Shown here: positions 5,852 to 54,415 of the stretch, piece by piece
Layout of the letters: each line of letters begins with the position of its first letter
How positions within the stretch are numbered: the stretch's first letter is position 1
Program-made: the position numbers and the translations under genes
Notes under the pieces: generated by a model
The model's database searches: none
What the model was told of the DNA's origin: nothing
The model's input: the letters and a program-made list of their open reading frames with translations, nothing else
Source: Chloroflexota bacterium
Lineage (GTDB): Bacteria; Vulcanimicrobiota; JAMCWD01
Length of the DNA stretch: 64,000 nucleotides
Assembly: GCA_023475345.1 (NCBI GenBank)
Contig: JAMCWD010000034.1
Location: forward strand, 7,691 to 71,690
Reading direction: 5' to 3'

Positions 5852-6850
5852 TTACGCGGTAGGATTTTCCAGCGCCTTTTTCATGTACTTCGGAAGCGAG
5901 AACAGACGCTGGTCGGCAAGGCCGTCATAATAACGAAGCCCGGTAACCCCGCGTTCTTCCAGCCTCCTGTCTATTTCATCCTTGTTTATCGAAGTGGGTG
6001 AAAATGTCCTGGAGCCTATGACAAAGCCGAAAAGCGCATGATGGCTCGTCAGGTACTCCAGGAAGCTGTATGTCCTGGGGAACAGCTTCGACATCATATC
6101 ATAAACCAGCTTATGCCCCGGATTTTCATTCAGGGGATGATATATGGGGCAGGTGGATATAACCATAATCCCCAGCTTCTTCATCTTCGACTCGACCTGT
6201 TTTAACGAGTCAAGGTTAAAATGCTCATACCCGGGCTGTTCCGGGGAAGGCTCATTGATATCAAAAATAACCACATCGAAGGTGTCTTCGGTAGCGGCAA
6301 GGTAAACGAGTGCGTCTTCCTCGGTAATAAGTGTAACCCTTGGGTCTGCAAGCGATTCTTCCAGTTTCAGGAACGGCAGTTCTTCCTTGCATAGATCCAC
6401 AAGCGCCTTATCCCTTTCGAGCATCACGACTTTTTCAACGATGCGGTGACGGAGAATTTCCCGCAAAGCTCCCCCGCCTCCCCCGCCGATAAGGAGAACC
6501 GAAGCGGGCCTGGGATGGAGGCACATTACGGGGTGAACCAGCGTCTCATAAAAAACGAATTCATCCACTTCTGCAAGTTTCAGCCTGTTATTGATAAGTA
6601 GGCATTTGCCAAGGTGTGCGGCTTCGAGCAAATCTACACGGAAAAGCCCGGTCTGGACCCTTTTTAAAAACGAGGTAACATGGAATTGGGCGATATCGCC
6701 ATAGCGATATTCCAGCCTTAAAAACTCCGGTTTTGCCTCAAGAGCTTCTACTGCTTCTTCTTTTGCCTCTTCCATAACAGGATCTTCCGGCTCGATGACT
6801 TTTTCTTTCTCGCTTGCTTCCTGATTGAGGTTTAATTGCTTGTCTTTCAT
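5852..6850 (-). CDS. Spermidine synthase-family (aminopropyltransferase-like) protein with an acidic N-terminal extension
   Basis: DEFVFYETLVHP...VLLIGGGGGGALREILRH...VVMLERD...DVVIFDINEP follows the SpeE fold pattern. GGGDGG is replaced by GGGGGG, and D(S/C)TDP by DINEP. Confidence 0.6.
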   Translation of the reverse strand: MKDKQLNLNQEASEKEKVIEPEDPVMEEAKEEAVEALEAKPEFLRLEYRYGDIAQFHVTSFLKRVQTGLFRVDLLEAAHLGKCLLINNRLKLAEVDEFVFYETLVHPVMCLHPRPASVLLIGGGGGGALREILRHRIVEKVVMLERDKALVDLCKEELPFLKLEESLADPRVTLITEEDALVYLAATEDTFDVVIFDINEPSPEQPGYEHFNLDSLKQVESKMKKLGIMVISTCPIYHPLNENPGHKLVYDMMSKLFPRTYSFLEYLTSHHALFGFVIGSRTFSPTSINKDEIDRRLEERGVTGLRYYDGLADQRLFSLPKYMKKALENPTA

Positions 6851-6928
6851 ACCCTTTCTTTCTCAACAAGAGGAAAAAAATCCTGCAAAAAGAATTGAAA
6901 AGAAAAATATAATAGATGGAGCAAAAAT

Positions 6929-8137
6929 ATGGAAGAACTGTTCAAAGAATTACTGACCGAGCAGGATACGAAGATGATATTGCTGGTAATCGACGGCCTG
7001 GGAGGTCTTCCCGACCCTTCGTCCGGCCTTACCGAGCTTGAAACGGCTGAAACGCCCAATCTTGACTCTCTTGCCCGCACATCGACCTGCGGCCTGAGCG
7101 TCCCTATAGGTCCCGGCATAACGCCGGGGAGCGGCCCAGCCCACCTTTCGCTGTTCGGATACAACCCTGTAAGACATATTGTCGGCCGCGGCGTGCTCTC
7201 GGCGCTGGGCGTGGATTTCCCGCTCAAAGAAAACGATGTGGCAGCAAGGATTAATTTTGCAACCGTAGATAACGGCATTATCACGGACCGCCGGGCGGGC
7301 AGGATCCCCGATAAGTATGCTTCGAAATTATGTGAACTCCTTAATAAAATCGAGATCCCTGGTGTAGAGGTTTTTGTCCGCCACGAAAAGGAACACCGCG
7401 GGGTGGTGATCTTCAGGGGTGAAGGGCTTTCGGACAGGCTGGAAGATATGGATCCCCAGAAAACCGGAGTCCCTCCCCTCCCTGCAAAAGCCGTCGTTCC
7501 CGAAGCTCAAAAGACCGCATCGATAGCGGACGAATTCGTTGAAGCCGCCGCAAAGATCCTTTCAAAAAACCACCCTGCAGAATACAGGGCGAATTATGTC
7601 ATGCTCAGGGGATTCGCCTCACACCCGGGCCTTGAGCTTTTCAATGACCGGTACCTTTTAAAGGCCGCCGCCATTGCCGAATACCCGATGTACCGCGGCC
7701 TGGCAAGGCTGCTCGGAATGGAAGTCCTGGAAAAGCCCGACGGGCTGGAAGATGAAGTCAGGCAGCTTAAAGAAAATTATAATAATTACGACTTCTTCTT
7801 TTTCCATGTTAAAAAGACCGATTCAACAGGCGAAGACGGCGATTTCGCCGCGAAGGTCAAAGCCATTGAAGCGGTGGACAAACTGGTCCCGGCGATAGTT
7901 GAATTAAAACCGGACTGCCTCGTCATAACCGGAGACCATTCCACCCCGTCAATCTTGAAATCACACAGTTGGCACCCTGTCCCTTATATGCTATATTCGA
8001 AATACGCCCGCCATGACAAAATAAGCGGCTTTTCCGAAACCGAATGCGGGAGAGCGAGCCTGGGGCGCTTCCCGGCAATAGATAATATGGTGCTTATGCT
8101 GGCCCACGCCCTGAGGCTGAAAAAATTCGGAGCATAG
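6929..8137 (+). CDS. apgM: Cofactor-independent phosphoglycerate mutase, archaeal-type
   Basis: MILLVIDGLGGLP...TELETAETPNLDSLA at the N-terminus, ITGDHSTP near the C-terminus, about 400 aa. Confidence 0.8.
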   Translation: MEELFKELLTEQDTKMILLVIDGLGGLPDPSSGLTELETAETPNLDSLARTSTCGLSVPIGPGITPGSGPAHLSLFGYNPVRHIVGRGVLSALGVDFPLKENDVAARINFATVDNGIITDRRAGRIPDKYASKLCELLNKIEIPGVEVFVRHEKEHRGVVIFRGEGLSDRLEDMDPQKTGVPPLPAKAVVPEAQKTASIADEFVEAAAKILSKNHPAEYRANYVMLRGFASHPGLELFNDRYLLKAAAIAEYPMYRGLARLLGMEVLEKPDGLEDEVRQLKENYNNYDFFFFHVKKTDSTGEDGDFAAKVKAIEAVDKLVPAIVELKPDCLVITGDHSTPSILKSHSWHPVPYMLYSKYARHDKISGFSETECGRASLGRFPAIDNMVLMLAHALRLKKFGA

Positions 8138-8146
8138 GGGGAATTT

Positions 8147-8668
8147 ATGCCTGGAAATATTGACCGGCTGACAAGACTCCGTACTGAAGATTTCCTGGAC
8201 GAATCGCTCCCGTTCGAAATCGAACGTTGTGAGCGCTATGGCAGGCCCGTCAGCTTCCTCCTCGTGGAGCCGCGGATCGACGACAGAGAAAGCACCGACG
8301 TGCTATACCCGATTTTAAAAAAAATCGCCGCATACATCAGGAACCATACCAGGTTCATGGATATATCCGTTCGAATAGGAAGACAGGTACTGCTTGTAAT
8401 GACGGAAACGAGCCTTGAATCCGCCGCCGTCGTTGAAAAGAAAATTAAGAATATTGTCGAGTCTGAACCTTACGAGGTCAGCCCTTCCTTCCCGCATATA
8501 AATGTTCAATTGAGAACCGCACTTGGCGCATACCCTGAAGCGGGCAGGGAAGCAACGACGATCCTTAAAACCTTAAGGGACCGGTTGTACGGTTTTGACA
8601 AGTCCCCCGGCGAGGAACCCTGGAAAGAATCATCTCCTGGTTCATGTGAGGAACCAAGCGCCGATTAG
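8147..8668 (+). CDS. Degenerate GGDEF-like domain protein (no GGDEF signature)
   Basis: DRLTRL....F...L..EIERCERYGRPVSFLLVEP and RFMDISVRIGRQVLLVM follow the GGDEF-domain pattern. The GG(D/E)EF site reads GRQVL. Confidence 0.4.
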   Translation: MPGNIDRLTRLRTEDFLDESLPFEIERCERYGRPVSFLLVEPRIDDRESTDVLYPILKKIAAYIRNHTRFMDISVRIGRQVLLVMTETSLESAAVVEKKIKNIVESEPYEVSPSFPHINVQLRTALGAYPEAGREATTILKTLRDRLYGFDKSPGEEPWKESSPGSCEEPSAD

Positions 8669-8736
8669 ATCCGGACAGTTGAATAAAACATGAAATATAC
8701 CGTGCCGTTATAAGCCGGGCCGGTTATTTTCTGGAG

Positions 8737-9465
8737 CTAGTTCCTGGGGTAAACTATCCTCTGGGTGGCTATGGTCGTTTCTTCCTGTCCCCCGGACTTG
8801 GTAAGCTTCAGGCTCACTATAAAATAAGGGACTTCGTCATAAGAATACATGGTTAAAACCTCGAACTGGGAAACGTTATGTGCTATTATTTTATAATTGC
8901 CTGAAAGGCTGCTTATTTCACTCAGCGGTATTGTCCAGGGGATAGGGTCGGGGGGGAAACTTCCGCTGACAATTTTCCTGACAAGCTGGTTTCCGATGCC
9001 GTCAGGCTCCGGATAAAGGTAATATATAATCCATTTCTGCCACATAGGAAAACCTGTCCCGGGGTCTGTAACGAAATTGTTTGCTGTGTCCCGGGCCGAA
9101 GGCAGCGCAAGGGCATGAGGCGCTTTAACATAAGTTACGGGTGCTTCATCGGCCTGGGCGGTGGAAGCTTCCACCTCGATAATGCTCAGATCATCGGGAT
9201 CCGACGAGAGGGTTCCATGTACGGCAACTTCGGGCGCTTCTACAGTATAATTGGTAATCCATTCCGCCTTGCTTTCGGCCATGTCATTTATAAATACGCT
9301 TTCGGCCACTATTATCTGGTTTTGTAAATCTGCAAGCTTATCACCTGCATTGAAATGATGCAATACCGGGTTCATAAGCTGAAACGACAGGACGAGCACC
9401 GTCGTGAATATGGCAAATGCAATAAGCAATTCAATTATTGTAACGCCGCGCATTTTAACTTTCAC
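8737..9465 (-). CDS. Prepilin-type N-terminal cleavage/methylation domain protein (pseudopilin)
   Basis: N-terminus MRGVTIIELLIAFAIFTTVLV, a class III signal peptide with the conserved E. Confidence 0.75.
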   Translation of the reverse strand: MKVKMRGVTIIELLIAFAIFTTVLVLSFQLMNPVLHHFNAGDKLADLQNQIIVAESVFINDMAESKAEWITNYTVEAPEVAVHGTLSSDPDDLSIIEVEASTAQADEAPVTYVKAPHALALPSARDTANNFVTDPGTGFPMWQKWIIYYLYPEPDGIGNQLVRKIVSGSFPPDPIPWTIPLSEISSLSGNYKIIAHNVSQFEVLTMYSYDEVPYFIVSLKLTKSGGQEETTIATQRIVYPRN

Positions 9466-48962: not shown

Positions 48963-50327
48963 TCAATAGGCGGAGGTTCCCGCCTCTCCTTTCACTATCG
49001 CAACGCTTGCGGATGCGCCTATCCTGGTTGCCCCGGCTTTAATCATCTGCTGTGCGGTTTCGAAATCCCGGATCCCGCCGGAGGCCTTGACTCCCATGTA
49101 TTTGCCGACGGTCTTTCTCATCAGGGCTATATCATGGACTGTAGCGCCGCCGCCGCCGAAACCCGTCGATGTCTTGACGAAATCCGCGCCGGCCTGCTTG
49201 GAAAGCTCACAACCTTTTATTTTTTCTTCGTCTGTTAAAAGTGAAGTCTCGAGTATGACCTTCAGGATCTTACCCCTGCACGCATCGCGGACAGCTTTTA
49301 TATCTTCCAGGGCCAGGTCGTAATTGCCGGCCTTGAGAGCGCCGACATTAATAACCATGTCTATTTCTTCAGCACCGTTGGCTATAGCGTCGCGGGTTTC
49401 CATCGCCTTCGCTACGGATGTAGTCGCGCCCAGCGGGAAGCCGATAACAGTGCAGACTTTGACCACGGTGCCTTTCAGCGCATCGGCGCAAAGCTTAACA
49501 TAGCCGGGATTGATACAGACCGAGGCGAATTTATATTTCCTTGCCTCCTCGCAGAGCTTCAATACCTGTTCCCTTGTAGCATCAGGCTTGAGGAGGGTGT
49601 GGTCGATAGTCCCGGCGATTTTCGCAGCGCTTTCGCCCCCGCCAAGTGTTGCGGAAAGCCTGTCTGCGCCTGCATCTATGACGGCGTCAACTTTCTCCGT
49701 CGCAAGGTAAGTACAATGGCCGCATCCCAGGCATTCGCCCCCGCTTGCCAGGCTGCAGACCCCGCCTTCGGAAGCTGCGGCAGGCTTGCCGTATTTTGGC
49801 TCTGCGACAAGATCCTTAAACAATATGCAGAGAGCCGAAAGCTCCTTTACAAGGGCCTCTTCCTTTTTCTTGAGCGCGCCGGATTTGACGTTGTAGCATT
49901 TAACGGCCATCACGGAGAACCCGCGGTCAAGCGCCTCGATAAGATAGGCCATAATCCTGGCGTCCCCCAGGAGGTTGGCCAGCCTCGACAGGCCGCCGAT
50001 GCACATCACGGGATAATAGATCTCCGTTCCGGGAGCAAGCACGCTCAGCCCGCCTGCAAGGTTGGGGTGTACGGCTTCAAATCCCGGAGGCAGCGAAACG
50101 TCTGCGATGGTGATCACTTTGCCGGTACAACCCTGTGACGAAAGCCAGTCGAAAACCGAAGCGGCGGTTCCCGGCGATTCATCCAGGAGAACGATCACAT
50201 TTTTCAGTTTGCCGGGTGCAGGCGATGAGCCTGTTCCTGCCGCCGATGCCTGGGCCGGGAGGCTCTTCGAATTCATGCCTTCGATAACTTCCCGGGTTAC
50301 TTTTTCGATAAGTTCTTGTAATTCCAC
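48963..50327 (-). CDS. deoC: Deoxyribose-phosphate aldolase fused to an N-terminal encapsulation-peptide-like helix, a PduM-like domain and a four-Cys motif
   Basis: C-terminal 220 aa: [18 protein letters not shown], and KVILETS...[10 protein letters not shown] (Schiff-base Lys region), which is DeoC. N-terminus: [18 protein letters not shown]. Residues 40-175 parallel the protein at 52603-53352. C191-X7-C-X2-C-X2-C205. GTG start after an AGAGGTGG RBS. Confidence 0.85.
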
Positions 50328-50353: not shown

Positions 50354-50806
50354 TTATTTTTTGAGATATTTTTCCTCAATCTGGATAATTTTATTGACGC
50401 GCCGGGAGTGCCTCCCCCCGGCGAAGCTGGTTCCAAGCCATTTCTTGGCTATTTCTTTTGCCAGCCCCGGCCCGGTTATCATGCTCCCCAGGGTCAAAAC
50501 ATTCGCATCGTTATGTTCCCGGCTGTTGCCCGCGGCATAGGTATCGTAACATGCCGCGGCCCGTATCCCCGGGACCTTGTTTGCCGCCATCGCAGACCCC
50601 ATGCCTGCGCCGTCGATTACTATCCCGACAAAATCGCCGTCTTCGCTGACCTTCTGGGCGACAAGGAGGGCTATATCGGGATAATCTACGGCATCTTTCG
50701 AATAAGTGCCATAATCGAGCACGTTGTGCCCTTCGCCTTCAAGGAAGGCTTTTAATATTTCCTTGAGATCAAATCCGCCGTGATCGCTTCCGATTACGAT
50801 ATTCAT
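50354..50806 (-). CDS. rpiB: Ribose-5-phosphate isomerase B / sugar-phosphate isomerase (RpiB/LacAB family)
   Basis: [45 protein letters not shown]. The start is the ATG at 50804-50806 after a GGGAGA RBS. Confidence 0.88.
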
Positions 50807-50821
50807 AATCAATCTCCCGGT

Positions 50822-51121
50822 TTAACTGTCATACCTGCTGTATGGTTCCCCGTTTTTAGGAAACAATTTTTCGATATCGGGATGAGGCCTGGGTATAATA
50901 TGAGCGGCTATCAATTCACCGATAACCCGTGCCCTTTCAGCGCCCGCTTCGACTGCGGCGCTCACCGCGCCTACATCTCCCCTGACGAAAATAGTAACGT
51001 AAGCCGCGCCTATTTTTTCTTCACCTATACAAACAACCTGTGCCGTCTTGACCATGGCATCGGCCGCTTCTATTGCGGCACTCTGTCCGAGAGTTTCAAT
51101 CATTCCGAGGGCTTCTTCCAC
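50822..51121 (-). CDS. BMC-H shell protein (Pfam00936-type hexamer subunit)
   Basis: [25 protein letters not shown]......[25 protein letters not shown]...A.....[10 protein letters not shown]. Confidence 0.9.
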
Positions 51122-51153: not shown

Positions 51154-52575
51154 CTATATTATCCTGAAATAATCTACAAGAACACAACGCCTGCTCCTTG
51201 TAAAGGAGCGCGCGGACGTAAGACCTTCGCCCGTCGGGCTTGCGATTGTAAGTGTGGTATAACCTTCTCCGCCATAGCCCAGACCCGCGACTGAAGGCCC
51301 GTTCTTCACGAATATCGACGTCTTAATCCGTTGGGCCATGCGGCTGAGACTTTCTACATTCTTCGAATGCATCATCGCCGAATGATAATTGCCGTGCTCC
51401 ACCCTGACCGCCATATCGATGGCTTCGTTGACATCCCTGACCCGCACCATCGGCAGAACCGGCATAAGCTGCTCCAGTTGGACAAGCGGGTGATCCTCGC
51501 TCACCTCGCAGAAGAGAAGGCGGATATCCGAGGGAAGATCCAGCCCTATAGCTTTTGCAAGCACCTGTGCCGTGCGCCCGATATAATCCTTGTTCATCGA
51601 AGCTGAACAGCCCGGGCCGCCTGGCTTTACCACTACCCTGACAAGCTCTTCCACCTGGTGTGAGGTCAACTCGTAAGCGCCGGATATCTTCATAAATCTT
51701 CTCAGTTCGTTTATGACGCTTTCCACCACTATAAGAATTTTCTCGGCGGTACAGAGGACGTTGTTATCGAATGACGCTCCGAAAATAATATCCGAGGCGG
51801 CTTTTTTAATATCGGCGGTCTCGTCCACCACCACCGGGGGATTGCCCGGCCCTGCGGCGATGACTTTCTTGCCCGATCTCATGGCAAGATGAACGACCTC
51901 TTCGCCGCCGGTAACGACAAGGATCCTTATGCCGGGGTGTTTCATGATATACTGGCCGCTCTGGAGCGTCGGCTTTGCAAGGCTTGTAAGCAGGTTCGGG
52001 GGGCCTCCCGCCTTCATAATACCTTCATTGATAATTTCAACAGCCCTGTTGGATACCTGTGCGGCCGTGGGATGAGGATGGAAGACGACGGCATTGCCTG
52101 CGGATACCATGCCTATGGAGTTGTTAATAACGGTGGCCGCAGGGTTTGTCGAAGGAGTGATTGAGCCGATGACGCCGTAAGGGGCCATCTCGACGAGAGT
52201 CAGGCCGCGGTCGCCTGTAAAGACCACAGAATCAAGGTCTTCAACGCCGGGGGTTTTCTGGGCCGCCAGGATATTTTTCTGGAGCTTATCGGAGGCTCTC
52301 CCCATGCCGGTTTCTGCGACTCCCAGGTCGGCAAGCTCCTGTGCATGAGAAAGCGCCGCTTCCCTCATGGCCTGAACCAGTTCTTTCCGCTTCTCAAGCG
52401 AAAGCGCGCTTAAAGTTTCATGCGCCGCTTTTGCCGCATCTACCGCGGAATCAAGGTCCTGGTAAATGCCGAGCTTCGGCGACTGCAACTCCAGCGTTTC
52501 CAGAGCGGAGCTTCTCACGAACTTCTTCACCACTTCTTCAACTATACTTGCAACTCTGGTCCTGTCAATTTCCAT
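51154..52575 (-). CDS. CoA-acylating aldehyde dehydrogenase (PduP/EutE-like) with an N-terminal encapsulation-peptide-like helix
   Basis: ALDH-family body with the catalytic region FDNNVLCTAEK. N-terminus: MEIDRTRVASIVEEVVKKFV. Confidence 0.85.
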   Translation of the reverse strand: MEIDRTRVASIVEEVVKKFVRSSALETLELQSPKLGIYQDLDSAVDAAKAAHETLSALSLEKRKELVQAMREAALSHAQELADLGVAETGMGRASDKLQKNILAAQKTPGVEDLDSVVFTGDRGLTLVEMAPYGVIGSITPSTNPAATVINNSIGMVSAGNAVVFHPHPTAAQVSNRAVEIINEGIMKAGGPPNLLTSLAKPTLQSGQYIMKHPGIRILVVTGGEEVVHLAMRSGKKVIAAGPGNPPVVVDETADIKKAASDIIFGASFDNNVLCTAEKILIVVESVINELRRFMKISGAYELTSHQVEELVRVVVKPGGPGCSASMNKDYIGRTAQVLAKAIGLDLPSDIRLLFCEVSEDHPLVQLEQLMPVLPMVRVRDVNEAIDMAVRVEHGNYHSAMMHSKNVESLSRMAQRIKTSIFVKNGPSVAGLGYGGEGYTTLTIASPTGEGLTSARSFTRSRRCVLVDYFRII

Positions 52576-52602: not shown

Positions 52603-53352
52603 TCAATAAAAAATCAATGCTATCCCGTTTTCGTCACACAGGTCGCGGGCAAGAGGAGTAATTATGCTCCCCATCGGCATCCTGATATCTTTGCCGCCCG
52701 CATCCATTAATTTCAGGACATCCTCCCGCGTCAATACACTTCTTCCGGCGGAAGCGTTTACGGCTCCCGCACCGCCTTTCAACTGTTCCGAAAGCGAGTT
52801 TACTTCCAGCGGGATAACCTTGAACGAAGCAAGCGTCCTGAGGTGTCCGGCCACCGTTTCCAGGAAACCCCTGGGAAGGTAAGCCGAAAGCCTGTTCATA
52901 TCGCTCAGTTCCGCAAGATCTACCAGGAGCGGCTTCTGTTTCCTGAGTCCCATTAAAAGCGCATCGCTTACCCGGTCGCCCCCGGTGAGAGTCGCAGCCC
53001 TTGCCAGGCACTCCAGTGTGAAAAACGGGAAAAGCAAAAAATCACCGCTTTCCACGAGGGGGGCAAGAGGCGTTTCCGGATCATGGGCTCGGAATGGAAC
53101 TCCCGGCAGAAACCTTGCCAGATCCTGCTTCTGGGCGGGATGAGATACCAGGAAATTATGTTGTATCCCATCAAGTGTGCCCAGGCTTTTCCAGAAAGGA
53201 GCCTCCTCCTGCATTTCGTGCGGGAGGAGGATTACCGTGCTTTTCTGCTTTTTGGAAGGATCCGGGGGTTCTCCGGCCGGGGTGCTATCCAGGGCGGACA
53301 GACGTTCCATCACTTCCCTGGTGATCACCTCCACCAGAGGCTCCAAATTCAT
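52603..53352 (-). CDS. PduM-like microcompartment-associated protein
   Basis: N-terminus MNLEPLVEVITREVMERL. The C-terminal VLTREDVLKLMDAGGKDIRMPMGSIITPLARDLCDENGI resembles the PduM C-terminus (...V..A.ARD.A....I) as I recall it. Confidence 0.5.
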   Translation of the reverse strand: MNLEPLVEVITREVMERLSALDSTPAGEPPDPSKKQKSTVILLPHEMQEEAPFWKSLGTLDGIQHNFLVSHPAQKQDLARFLPGVPFRAHDPETPLAPLVESGDFLLFPFFTLECLARAATLTGGDRVSDALLMGLRKQKPLLVDLAELSDMNRLSAYLPRGFLETVAGHLRTLASFKVIPLEVNSLSEQLKGGAGAVNASAGRSVLTREDVLKLMDAGGKDIRMPMGSIITPLARDLCDENGIALIFY

Positions 53353-53377: not shown

Positions 53378-53677
53378 TTACTTCTTTTCCTTGGGCGCAG
53401 CGATGGGAAGAACCTCGTCAAGGTCTCTGTGAGGTCTCGGTATAACGTGGACCGCTACAAGTTCTCCCACTTTGCGGGCCGCAGCAGCGCCTGCGTCGGT
53501 GGCGGCGCGGACAGCGGCTACATCGCCGCGGACCAGTGATGTTACATAACCCGCGCCGATTTTCTCGTAACCGATCATTTTTACGTTGGCAGCCTTGACC
53601 ATAGCATCCGATGCTTCGATCATAGCCACCAGGCCCTTGGTTTCTATCATGCCCAGGGCTTCATAGGTACTTATCAT
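53378..53677 (-). CDS. BMC-H shell protein (PduA/EutM-like)
   Basis: [56 protein letters not shown]...[16 protein letters not shown]. Confidence 0.92.
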
Positions 53678-53746: not shown

Positions 53747-54415
53747 TTATATTATCAATTCGCCCGTCATGCCGGGTTTGAGAGCGCATGCGTTGGCCTC
53801 GTCAAAATCAATGTGCATCTCAAGCCTGAAACCCTCGTGTACCCTTACAAGCACTTCCTCGAATATTACTCCTCTATCCCCGCCGATTCTTACTTTAACC
53901 ACCTGGCGATCCTTTACGCCGAATTTCTCCGCATCGCCGGGCGTCATGTGAACATGCCTCCTGGCAATAACCAGCCCGTCCGGCAGAATTACCGTCCCAC
54001 CGGGACCTACAATTGTAATACCGGCGGTTCCTTCAAGATCGCCGGATTCACGCACCGGCGGCACATCAATCCCCAGGGCATGGCAATCGGTAACGGATAC
54101 TTCCACCTGGCTCTTTTTGCGGACAGGCCCCAGGACACGGACATCATTCAAAGCGCCGCCTTTCCCTGCGACAGTTACCGTCTCTACACAGGCAAACTGC
54201 CCGGGCTGGCTCAAATCTTTCATCGGGGTCAGGTTATATCCTGCCCCGAATAAGGCTTCCAGGTCGGCCCGGCTCAGATGAATATGGCAGTTGGATGCCG
54301 CGATCGGTATCCCGCCTTTCGAGCTTTCACAGTGCGTCATGCCGCCCTGTGTCTCGCGGCCAAGCCGGGACAGCACTTCCCTTACAATTTCTTTAACTAT
54401 TTCCGTATTTTCCAT
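53747..54415 (-). CDS. pduL: PduL-type phosphate acyltransferase with an N-terminal encapsulation-peptide-like helix
   Basis: Two PduL repeats (IPIAASNCHIHLSRADLEALFG... and RRHVHMTPGDAEKFG...). N-terminus: MENTEIVKEIVREVLSRL. Confidence 0.85.
   Translation of the reverse strand: MENTEIVKEIVREVLSRLGRETQGGMTHCESSKGGIPIAASNCHIHLSRADLEALFGAGYNLTPMKDLSQPGQFACVETVTVAGKGGALNDVRVLGPVRKKSQVEVSVTDCHALGIDVPPVRESGDLEGTAGITIVGPGGTVILPDGLVIARRHVHMTPGDAEKFGVKDRQVVKVRIGGDRGVIFEEVLVRVHEGFRLEMHIDFDEANACALKPGMTGELII

Follow-up and report, generated by a model that had tools for sequence, protein, structure and literature searches.

The window analysed here, a 64-kb stretch (64,000 nucleotides) of contig JAMCWD010000034.1 from a Chloroflexota bacterium, carries a compact bacterial microcompartment (BMC) locus of the sugar-phosphate-utilising (SPU) type with seven same-strand genes, the last of which encodes a class I deoxyribose-5-phosphate aldolase (DERA) with 235 residues in front of its catalytic domain. 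This N-terminal extension is modular, widely conserved, linked to microcompartments and homologous to a 249-amino-acid (249-aa) protein encoded in the same locus, and it contains an invariant cysteine site. Residues 1-235 are probably a packaging and assembly extension, built of separate modules, on the SPU signature enzyme, with a metal-binding knuckle. SPU microcompartment loci have been defined by genes for DERA, RPI, an aldehyde dehydrogenase and shell proteins (PMC4207490, PMC8217296, PMC11585597). In the window, two BMC-H genes and the genes matching Aldedh, LacAB_rpiB and PTAC lie on one strand within a span of at most 5.5 kb, flanked by RecO downstream and an alpha-amylase-like gene upstream (Table 1). 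This gene order is kept on the contigs of the closest homologs (L002, L003 and L004), including RecO downstream and a homolog of the 249-aa protein with 245-264 amino acids; a 249-aa-type protein also keeps its position in L011.

The aldolase proper is confined to about residues 236-454. Pfam DeoC (PF01791) spans residues 241-439 (E 8.6e-20), the NCBIfam deoC equivalog (TIGR00126) spans residues 238-445 (E 5.6e-88, 294 bits against a cut-off of 117), and solved DERAs align from residue 236 on (best E 6e-86), none of them reaching residues 1-235. D323, K385 and K414 are invariant among homologs and the C-terminal tyrosine nearly so; we take these to correspond to D102, K167, K201 and Y259 of the E. 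coli enzyme. By its catalytic residues, the protein is predicted to be an active DERA.

The extension begins with an amphipathic helix. Residues 3-20 were modelled as helical (pLDDT about 85) by AlphaFold2, both in the full-length model and in a model of the N-terminal region, and the hydrophobic moment of the helix, 0.56, was attained by only 0.56% of shuffled sequences, placing it in the top 0.6%. Its motif LVEkITrEV (L-[IV]-E-k-[IV]-T-r-E-V) is conserved across homologs and is common to the 249-aa protein. An earlier reading of the DNA made from the letters alone (the sequence-only reading) had placed an amphipathic helix at residues 1-18, limited the aldolase to about residues 236-454 and located a C-X7-C-X2-C-X2-C motif at residues 191-205; all three agree with the present results, the coordinates of the motif matching the minus strand. 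Comparable helices, of the pattern I-V-x-E-[IV]-V, open PduL (N-terminus MENTEIVKEIVREVLSRL) and the aldehyde dehydrogenase (N-terminus RVASIVEEVVKKFV) of the locus. With the DERA and the 249-aa protein, this makes four proteins with an encapsulation-type helix among the five that are not shell components. The fifth, the RpiB-family protein, starts 9 nt past the stop codon of the preceding BMC-H gene, which leaves no space for an extension, and it has none; it carries Asp at the position of the catalytic Cys (IVIDGAGMG). The Cys-to-Asp change in all SPU RPIs and a complex between DERA and RPI have been reported (PMC11585597); encapsulation in a shell and binding of DERA to RPI have been demonstrated only for the Chloroflexi SPU6 pair (PMC11585597). 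The bare RpiB-like protein of the window probably enters the compartment by binding DERA.

Table 1. Features of the window locus, and open reading frames (ORFs) with an ITPLARD module at other SPU loci
Feature	Coordinates	Strand	Description
DERA gene	48963..50327	-	454 aa, GTG start
DERA residues 1-20	50268..50327	-	Amphipathic helix of encapsulation-peptide type
DERA residues 21-39	50211..50267	-	Low-complexity linker; pLDDT <50 at residues 22-38; alignment columns hypervariable and gappy
DERA residues 40-175	49803..50210	-	Alpha/beta domain, UbiX/EpiD (PF02441, HFCD) flavoprotein fold
DERA residues 176-190	49758..49802	-	Second disordered linker; pLDDT <50 at residues 177-188; length and sequence vary
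DERA residues 191-205	49713..49757	-	C-X7-C-X2-C-X2-C motif, putative metal (Fe-S or Zn) site
DERA residues 206-235	49623..49712	-	Helix and 'V..VV.aGA.R.sa..G' segment
DERA residues 236-454 and stop	48963..49622	-	Class I DERA TIM barrel, catalytic residues intact
RpiB-family protein	50354..50812	-	Pfam LacAB_rpiB, E 2.8e-53
BMC-H	50822..51121	-	Pfam BMC
Acylating aldehyde dehydrogenase	51154..52575	-	Pfam Aldedh
249-aa paralog	52603..53352	-	Encapsulation helix, flavoprotein-fold domain and C-terminal ITPLARD module; without Pfam match
ITPLARD module of the 249-aa paralog	52603..52740	-	About 45 residues
BMC-H	53378..53677	-	Pfam BMC
PduL phosphotransacylase	53747..54415	-	Pfam PTAC
ITPLARD-module ORF, L018	6181..6948		
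ITPLARD-module ORF, L024	644..1411		
ITPLARD-module ORF, L042	9127..9840		
ITPLARD-module ORF, L063	2230..2883		
ITPLARD-module ORF, L065	476..1198		
ITPLARD-module ORF, L066	9312..9950		
ITPLARD-module ORF, L089	743..1555		
ITPLARD-module ORF, L049	9173..10822		

The structure of the DERA was modelled with AlphaFold2 on an alignment of 103 sequences (mean pLDDT 86). Between two disordered linkers, residues 40-175 form a well-defined alpha/beta domain with pLDDT values of 77-97. When the model of the N-terminal region alone was compared with the PDB by Foldseek, the top 26 matches were all flavoproteins of the UbiX/Pad1 type (best E 1.6e-5), with DpaB and DmrB, which also belong to the PF02441/HFCD family, ranking lower. 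Of the DERA fusions, 14 of 103 passed the PF02441 model (best E 1e-10), whereas the window DERA gave no match to it at E <= 0.1 and the 249-aa protein was likewise without one. Weak NCBIfam matches included AfpA and dihydromethanopterin reductase (DmrB-type), which are redox-active relatives. Two motifs for contacts to flavin mononucleotide (FMN), defined in part from an alignment to EpiD, were looked for: a G-[GS]-[ST] loop after strand 1, and P-A-[ST]-x-N-T-x-x-K-x-A-x-G-x-x-D-N. Both are degenerate in the window DERA, which reads LLDESPG at the strand-1 loop and has the second motif replaced too, and because of this degeneracy we infer that the window lineage no longer binds FMN. A catalytic His/Asn or a PAMN-type motif is not present in the window domain. 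Some homologs (such as P0083 and P0107) are near-canonical at the flavin contacts, for example '...LTGG...' and 'PTLTLNTASKVASLTADN', and the motifs 'P-x-L-T-L-N-[GT]-x-x-K-I-A-x-L-x-x-D' and 'G-G-D / T-G-S' occur in some DERA fusions.

The same domain is found in the 249-aa neighbour. BLASTP aligned it with the 249-aa protein at E 2e-5, with 27% identity over 150 amino acids, and hhalign, run with a profile of 95 DERA N-termini against one built from 60 sequences of the 249-aa family, gave 99.8% (E 1.2e-28), or 99.5% (E 3.8e-22) when the shared helix was left out. When hidden Markov models (HMMs) of the two families were run against the 833 stop-to-stop ORFs of the window, each matched only the other's ORF (E 6e-11 and 1.7e-6). 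An exhaustive HMM search of 1.84 billion proteins seeded with the 249-aa protein recovered 109 representative relatives and reached the DERA fusion P0182 directly (E 2.2e-6). A word-indexed homolog search with residues 1-236 alone returned no match, because this region is too divergent for shared 5-mers, and the same search with the 249-aa protein returned only itself and one relative. The sequence-only reading had noticed the parallel between residues 40-175 and the 249-aa protein, and the hhalign alignment pairs the same three stretches that it listed. It went on to propose that a module had been duplicated onto the signature enzyme, and this stands in part: the enzyme has acquired a module akin to the neighbour, but a recent duplication from the neighbour is rejected, since the paralogy, at 27% identity, is an old one and each family is a widespread group of its own. 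A homology of 'IDHTLLKP' at the start of the barrel with 'IITPLARD' at the end of the 249-aa protein was considered and dismissed, the resemblance being too short.

The domain had also been called PduM-like, which applies to the neighbour and not to the DERA domain itself. The comparison used five genes annotated as pduM, from Salmonella, Klebsiella, Escherichia, Enterobacter and Kosakonia, with a Salmonella sequence serving as probe only. PduM aligned end-to-end with the 249-aa family by hhalign (96.4%, E 1.3e-9): helix with helix, PduM residues 25-85 with the second half of the alpha/beta domain, and the C-termini over 'V-T-x-E-D-V...I-I-T-P-L-A-R-D'. With the DERA domain the five PduM sequences gave an insignificant 16-29%, the alignment falling on the same 'L-x-x-L-A ... 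A-L-x-x-G-x-x-V' motif. The C-terminal module of PduM, V-x-[ST]-x-x-D-V ... I-[IV]-T-A/P-[LM]-A-R-[DE], is present in the 249-aa neighbour and absent from the DERA extension, which has the cysteine module in its place. Judged by these alignments, the 249-aa neighbour belongs with PduM as an extended relative, the DERA domain is tied to PduM only through that neighbour, and the domain itself is better called a UbiX/EpiD/HFCD fold. Within the 249-aa family (n = 60), 15 members match PF02441, nine match E3_binding and five match PDU_like weakly, and the family profile finds EpiD (8e-4) and UbiX (5.5e-3) by sequence. The family also matches TIGR02536, 'ethanolamine utilization protein' (P0123 at 8e-18, P0173 at 3e-13), always under the NCBI cut-off of 152.6 bits; the match of the window protein itself is weak (E 3.9e-4) and limited to its C-terminus. 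This C-terminal module additionally gives weak matches to the EutQ N-terminus and to E3_binding/PSBD.

Behind the second linker lies the cysteine site. Its conservation was assessed in 103 homologs that are about 50% identical overall and 20-30% identical over the N-terminal region. The invariant residues are C191, C199, C205, G220, A221 and R223; conservation reaches about 90% at C202 and G203, and the flanking linker is hypervariable. In one subclade ('ECGGLGxC') C202 is replaced by L, S, V or K; we take this residue to be the second cysteine of CxxCxxC, the one that is missing in 3Fe-4S ferredoxins. The top PDB matches of a profile of the cysteine module were PsaC and small ferredoxins, aligned on CxxCxxC (E 0.005), and 4 of 27 modules matched Fer4 families near E 1e-3. 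The window motif itself consists of CxxCxxC without the CP, plus a cysteine seven residues upstream, and so differs from the ferredoxin pattern CxxCxxCxxxCP, which is complete in some short-form homologs such as P0087 ('CPATGAECIACGLCVVKCP'). There is about an even chance that the site would bind an Fe-S cluster; zinc is a possible but distinctly less likely ligand, and a site that binds no metal is less likely again.

The cysteine module and the segment that follows it are related to the barrel in two respects. The pLDDT of the module was about 80-84 in the full-length model and fell to about 60 when the N-terminal region was modelled in isolation, which suggests that the module packs on the aldolase barrel. 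In addition, residues 211-236 (49620-49697) resemble the C-terminal helix-strand of the DERA at residues 423-448 (48984-49061; hhalign 82%, E 1e-5), and the module profile also matches the C-termini of solved DERAs in the PDB. This likeness may stem from an internal duplication of part of the enzyme, or it may be structural mimicry. Because the second half of the module resembles the DERA C-terminus, its HMM cross-matched housekeeping DERAs; the extensions in the following survey were therefore read directly.

To survey DERA extensions, one genome per species was scanned and 80 DERA loci were examined with local HMMs and by reading the extensions. Housekeeping DERAs, from Bacillota and others, begin at the barrel. 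An extension of at least 40 residues goes with shell genes in the fetched flanks (28/46 against 2/34 loci; Fisher p = 3e-7). Fifty extension-bearing DERA ORFs were read, those of contig loci L002 and L003 included, and 46 of them show the order helix, cysteine-rich stretch, 'V..VV.aGA.R' and barrel; the GA.R segment is missing in the other four (L052, L053, L056 and L057). The GA.R segment is thus the most widespread element of SPU DERA extensions. What stands ahead of this core unit varies: nothing in short forms of about 290-350 amino acids, the flavoprotein-fold domain in the window clade, Ca. Ozemobacter and relatives, and an RPI domain in the chimeras L020 and L049. The long architecture of the window protein recurs in at least 90 of the 120 closest homolog clusters, in independent assemblies.

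The spacing of the cysteines is specific to clades: Cx3Cx4Cx3C in Anaerolineae, Cx2Cx3Cx3C(P) in Acidobacteriota and Acidimicrobiia, Cx2Cx2Cx2C in two loci, and Cx7Cx2Cx2C in the window clade and a metagenome-assembled genome (MAG) of Sumerlaeota. Among the 46 extensions with GA.R, at least four cysteines occur in 27, three in 2, two in 8, and none or one in 7. A survey of DeoC proteins of other BMC loci for the same motif, as proposed in the sequence-only reading, thus finds the site conserved in part: three cysteines are invariant in the 103 homologs, but the spacing differs between clades and 7 of the 46 (about 15%) have at most one. Neither of the two computational outcomes that the sequence-only reading had named as refuting, unrelated N-terminal regions and cysteines that are not conserved in orthologs, was obtained. 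Such variable spacing and loss point to a dispensable structural or regulatory metal site and not to an obligatory redox centre. PduS was detected within 10 kb in 1 of 27 shell-linked loci (L003), by a single-query search that may be too strict. Loci with the cysteine site comprise 17 without PduS within 10 kb and one with it, and an obligatory relay through PduS for cysteine-bearing DERAs is unsupported.

Several further observations were made in the course of the survey. In two long-form DERAs (L010 9734-11221, L012 9956-11512), from Ca. Ozemobacter sibiricus and from a related MAG, a second four-cysteine cluster, CTTCIGAGGCTSC, lies upstream of the usual one, giving eight cysteines in about 70 residues. 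Full-length 249-aa-type proteins were found in the window clade and in the Vulcanimicrobiota MAG L011, which has a short-form DERA; otherwise the C-terminal ITPLARD module was the only part of them found. This module, V-T-x-E-D-V ... G-x-I-[IV]-T-P-L-A-x-D-x-A...G-I, ends the 249-aa protein of the window. In other SPU loci it follows the encapsulation helix of SPU RPIs and precedes their RPI domain, or is found in proteins of 64-135 amino acids, and it also occurs in an RPI-DERA chimera (Table 1). By sequence, the published '75-residue linker' of SPU RPIs appears to contain this conserved domain. The locus of the close relative L003 has two additional genes, at 8258-8818 and 6824-8143, one of the PduS/MNdh type and one for a tandem-BMC protein. 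The BMC-T of L003 reads 'HPICAGKY', which presumably resembles the PduT motif with its 4Fe-4S ligand cysteine. This suggests that some members of the window clade own a shell electron-export pair that is absent from the window locus.

Taken as a packaging and assembly extension, residues 1-235 would work as follows. The amphipathic helix (residues 1-20) would target the aldolase to the cargo core or the shell. The degenerate flavoprotein-fold domain, its flavin chemistry lost, would serve as an oligomerisation or docking hub, multimerising the aldolase and tying it to the 249-aa paralog; a hub role is proposed because the solved members of the UbiX/EpiD fold are trimer-based dodecamers. The module of about 45 residues that follows (191-235), made of the four-cysteine knuckle and the conserved helix-strand, would dock on the aldolase barrel. 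The knuckle would bind metal, Fe-S being favoured over zinc, and would stabilise or conditionally control the docking of the extension. Its role is probably structural or regulatory; it might, for instance, make folding and packaging depend on anoxic, iron-replete conditions. An obligatory electron relay is disfavoured by the variable spacing, by the loss of the site in some lineages and by its missing linkage to PduS, and a redox-sensing role may be compatible with all three. Deletion of the extension from the SPU6 enzyme, in which the extension causes aggregation, left a soluble, active, dimeric DERA that still bound RPI (PMC11585597); the extension is therefore not needed for catalysis.

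Several results weigh against this interpretation or leave parts of it loose. The relative arrangement of the domains in the DERA model is undefined (pTM 0.57), and the Foldseek TM-scores are modest, at about 0.45. Given the near-canonical flavin motifs of some homologs, the family may have a catalytic or redox role. The window module itself matches no Fer4 family, the cysteine site is not universally required, and the metal could differ by lineage. The shell gene set of the window locus is incomplete: no BMC-P (EutN/CcmL) or BMC-T gene was found among the ORFs of the window by phmmer at E <= 10. Such genes were likewise not found within 10 kb of the locus in the closest relatives L002 and L003, while two to four BMC-P genes lie near most other SPU loci fetched. 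The vertex genes of the window clade must be placed in a satellite locus.

Other explanations of the extension were weighed against the packaging and assembly reading. A long N-terminus could arise as an artefact, from a wrong start or a fused upstream gene, with similarities due to chance; the gene does begin with GTG, and the starts of BMC enzymes are often called differently by automated annotation (PMC11585597). The ORF is uninterrupted, however, with a strong ribosome-binding site (GAGGTG) 6-7 nt upstream of the GTG, the same architecture recurs in most of the best homolog clusters, the profile E-values lie between 1e-22 and 1e-28, and the cysteines are invariant. An artefact is thus extremely improbable and effectively refuted. 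More weight, though still as an unlikely explanation, is due to a purely architectural knuckle in which the four cysteines hold a structural Zn2+ (or nothing in vivo) and staple the linker to the barrel without being redox-sensitive. Four cysteines in 15 residues with lineage-specific spacing display a plasticity that is common in small structural metal sites, the site has been lost in some lineages while the following GA.R segment was kept, and a significant Fer4 match is lacking for the window module. Against zinc, the spacing is unlike the usual pair of CxxC knuckles, and both the clade consensus E-C-x-G-C-G-x-C and the short-form CxxCxxCxxxCP of P0087 match ferredoxin motifs. The pattern of three invariant cysteines and one variable middle cysteine mirrors that of 4Fe/3Fe ferredoxins. 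Compact four-cysteine Fe-S motifs exist, such as Cx6Cx2Cx5C in EndoIII and Cx8Cx2CxC in Dre2, and most of the hosts are probably anaerobes; both points were also counted against zinc.

A redox module was judged improbable, more so than a zinc knuckle. It would hold FMN in the flavoprotein-fold domain and Fe-S at the four cysteines, possibly together with the 249-aa paralog, as an electron path that would re-oxidise the NADH of the aldehyde dehydrogenase inside the compartment or pass electrons to a shell Fe-S protein, replacing alcohol dehydrogenase and PduS. The window locus indeed has neither an alcohol dehydrogenase nor PduS. The homology to PF02441, the redox-active relatives among the weak NCBIfam matches, the near-canonical flavin motifs in some fusions and the ferredoxin-like CxxCGxC directly downstream of the flavoprotein-fold domain all fit such a module, as do PduS and the presumably PduT-like PICAGKY of the BMC-T in L003. 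BMC loci often hold flavin-related Pfam families (PMC4207490), the recycling of NAD+ in SPU compartments is an open issue (PMC11585597), and electron export by PduS (MNdh) and BMC-T is established elsewhere (PMC12747264). On the other hand, both flavin motifs of the window are degenerate and its domain fails the Pfam PF02441 model. No member of the UbiX/EpiD fold is known to oxidise NADH. The cysteine site is missing or differently spaced in many SPU DERAs and occurs mostly in loci without nearby PduS, and the SPU6 enzyme is active without its extension. A wider version of this idea, which we regard as quite unlikely, takes the helix, the flavoprotein-fold domain and the four cysteines as the remnant or working form of an internal SPU redox device, with PduM and the TIGR02536 proteins as its degenerate descendants. 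FMN and Fe-S on the signature enzyme would then sense or relay the reducing power of the aldehyde dehydrogenase, the device working where the motifs are intact. If this were true, the core-shell linkers of metabolosomes would descend from a redox enzyme, and in some systems they may still be cofactor-binding. The packaging and assembly extension remains the reading that we prefer.

Parts of this architecture are already known, namely the extension of SPU DERAs (2024) and an archaeal flavoprotein-DERA fusion (2025 preprint), and the window protein is one member of a large, already-sampled family and not a new kind of system. The SPU6 DERA from Chloroflexi (Dwyer, Sutter & Kerfeld 2024, PMC11585597) is likewise a DeoC signature enzyme whose extension, opened by an amphipathic helix, has no counterpart in housekeeping DERAs, and its adjacent RPI also has Asp for the catalytic Cys. 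Its extension was described as about 70 residues with 'a helix and two beta strands', a putative encapsulation peptide (PMC11585597), whereas in the 235-residue extension of the window DERA an entire flavoprotein-fold domain separates the helix from the cysteine module. The cysteines of DERA are not discussed in the main text of that paper; Anaerolineae-type DERAs have Cx3Cx4Cx3C where the window has Cx7Cx2Cx2C. The 'Flav+DERA' of Hodarchaeales operons (bioRxiv 2025, PMC12747264), compared by its description, shares the flavoprotein domain on an SPU-type DERA, the predicted encapsulation peptide and the recruitment to the shell. It is archaeal, was called 'uncommon in BMC', and was given no function, cysteine site or link to PduM (PMC12747264).

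PduM (PF15953 / TIGR04493) links core and shell and bears a signal sequence at its N-terminus (PMC12108088), and a 2025 study describes it as without homologs outside Pdu. It is a BMC-specific structural protein of low abundance. In common with the window extension it has a signal helix at the N-terminus and that half of the alpha/beta domain which reads 'l-P-l-l-x-x-L-A ... A-l-x-x-G-x-x-V'; it differs in its length (159-163 amino acids), in lacking the first half of the domain and in ending in the ITxxARD module that the DERA extension does not have. UbiX, Pad1, EpiD, CoaC and DpaB (PF02441) share the Rossmann-like fold and family-level sequence matches, but the window protein fails the Pfam model, has its FMN motifs replaced and is fused to a helix and an aldolase. 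The TIGR02536 proteins and the 'flavoprotein' of EUT2B/2D and GRM3 loci (Axen et al. 2014, PMC4207490) are BMC proteins of about 200-260 amino acids with a flavoprotein-like domain and ITPLARD, and unlike the window domain they stand alone, unfused to a signature enzyme; the 2014 paper lists PF02441 'flavoproteins' associated with BMCs and assigns them no role (PMC4207490). Ferredoxin-type and compact four-cysteine Fe-S sites resemble the window motif in its C-x-G-C-G-x-C core with a fourth cysteine nearby. In contrast to ferredoxins, the window site has no beta-alpha-beta-beta-alpha-beta fold and would take its fourth ligand from upstream, and the matches are weak (E 0.005 or worse). In the searchable literature, no description was found of a conserved cysteine site on DERA, of the prevalence of the long form among bacterial relatives of the window protein, of a recurrent ITPLARD module on SPU RPIs, or of a chain from the flavoprotein fold through an SPU/Eut accessory family to PduM; no paper was found there that joins PduM, microcompartment and flavoprotein.

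SPU compartments are among the most widespread BMCs yet are barely characterised, and both the nucleation of their cargo core and the recycling of NAD+ without an alcohol dehydrogenase are open. The present results turn the 'extension' and the statement that PduM has no homologs into specific, quickly testable hypotheses, including a four-cysteine site on the signature enzyme, and they connect the UbiX/EpiD fold to PduM by homology, with an SPU/Eut accessory family as the intermediate. If the cysteine site proves to be redox-active, the extension would be the first on a class I aldolase to bear a cofactor. Across SPU cargo proteins a small set of shuffled modules recurs (helix, flavoprotein-like domain, cysteine knuckle and ITPLARD), and these are candidate docking parts for the engineering of encapsulation.

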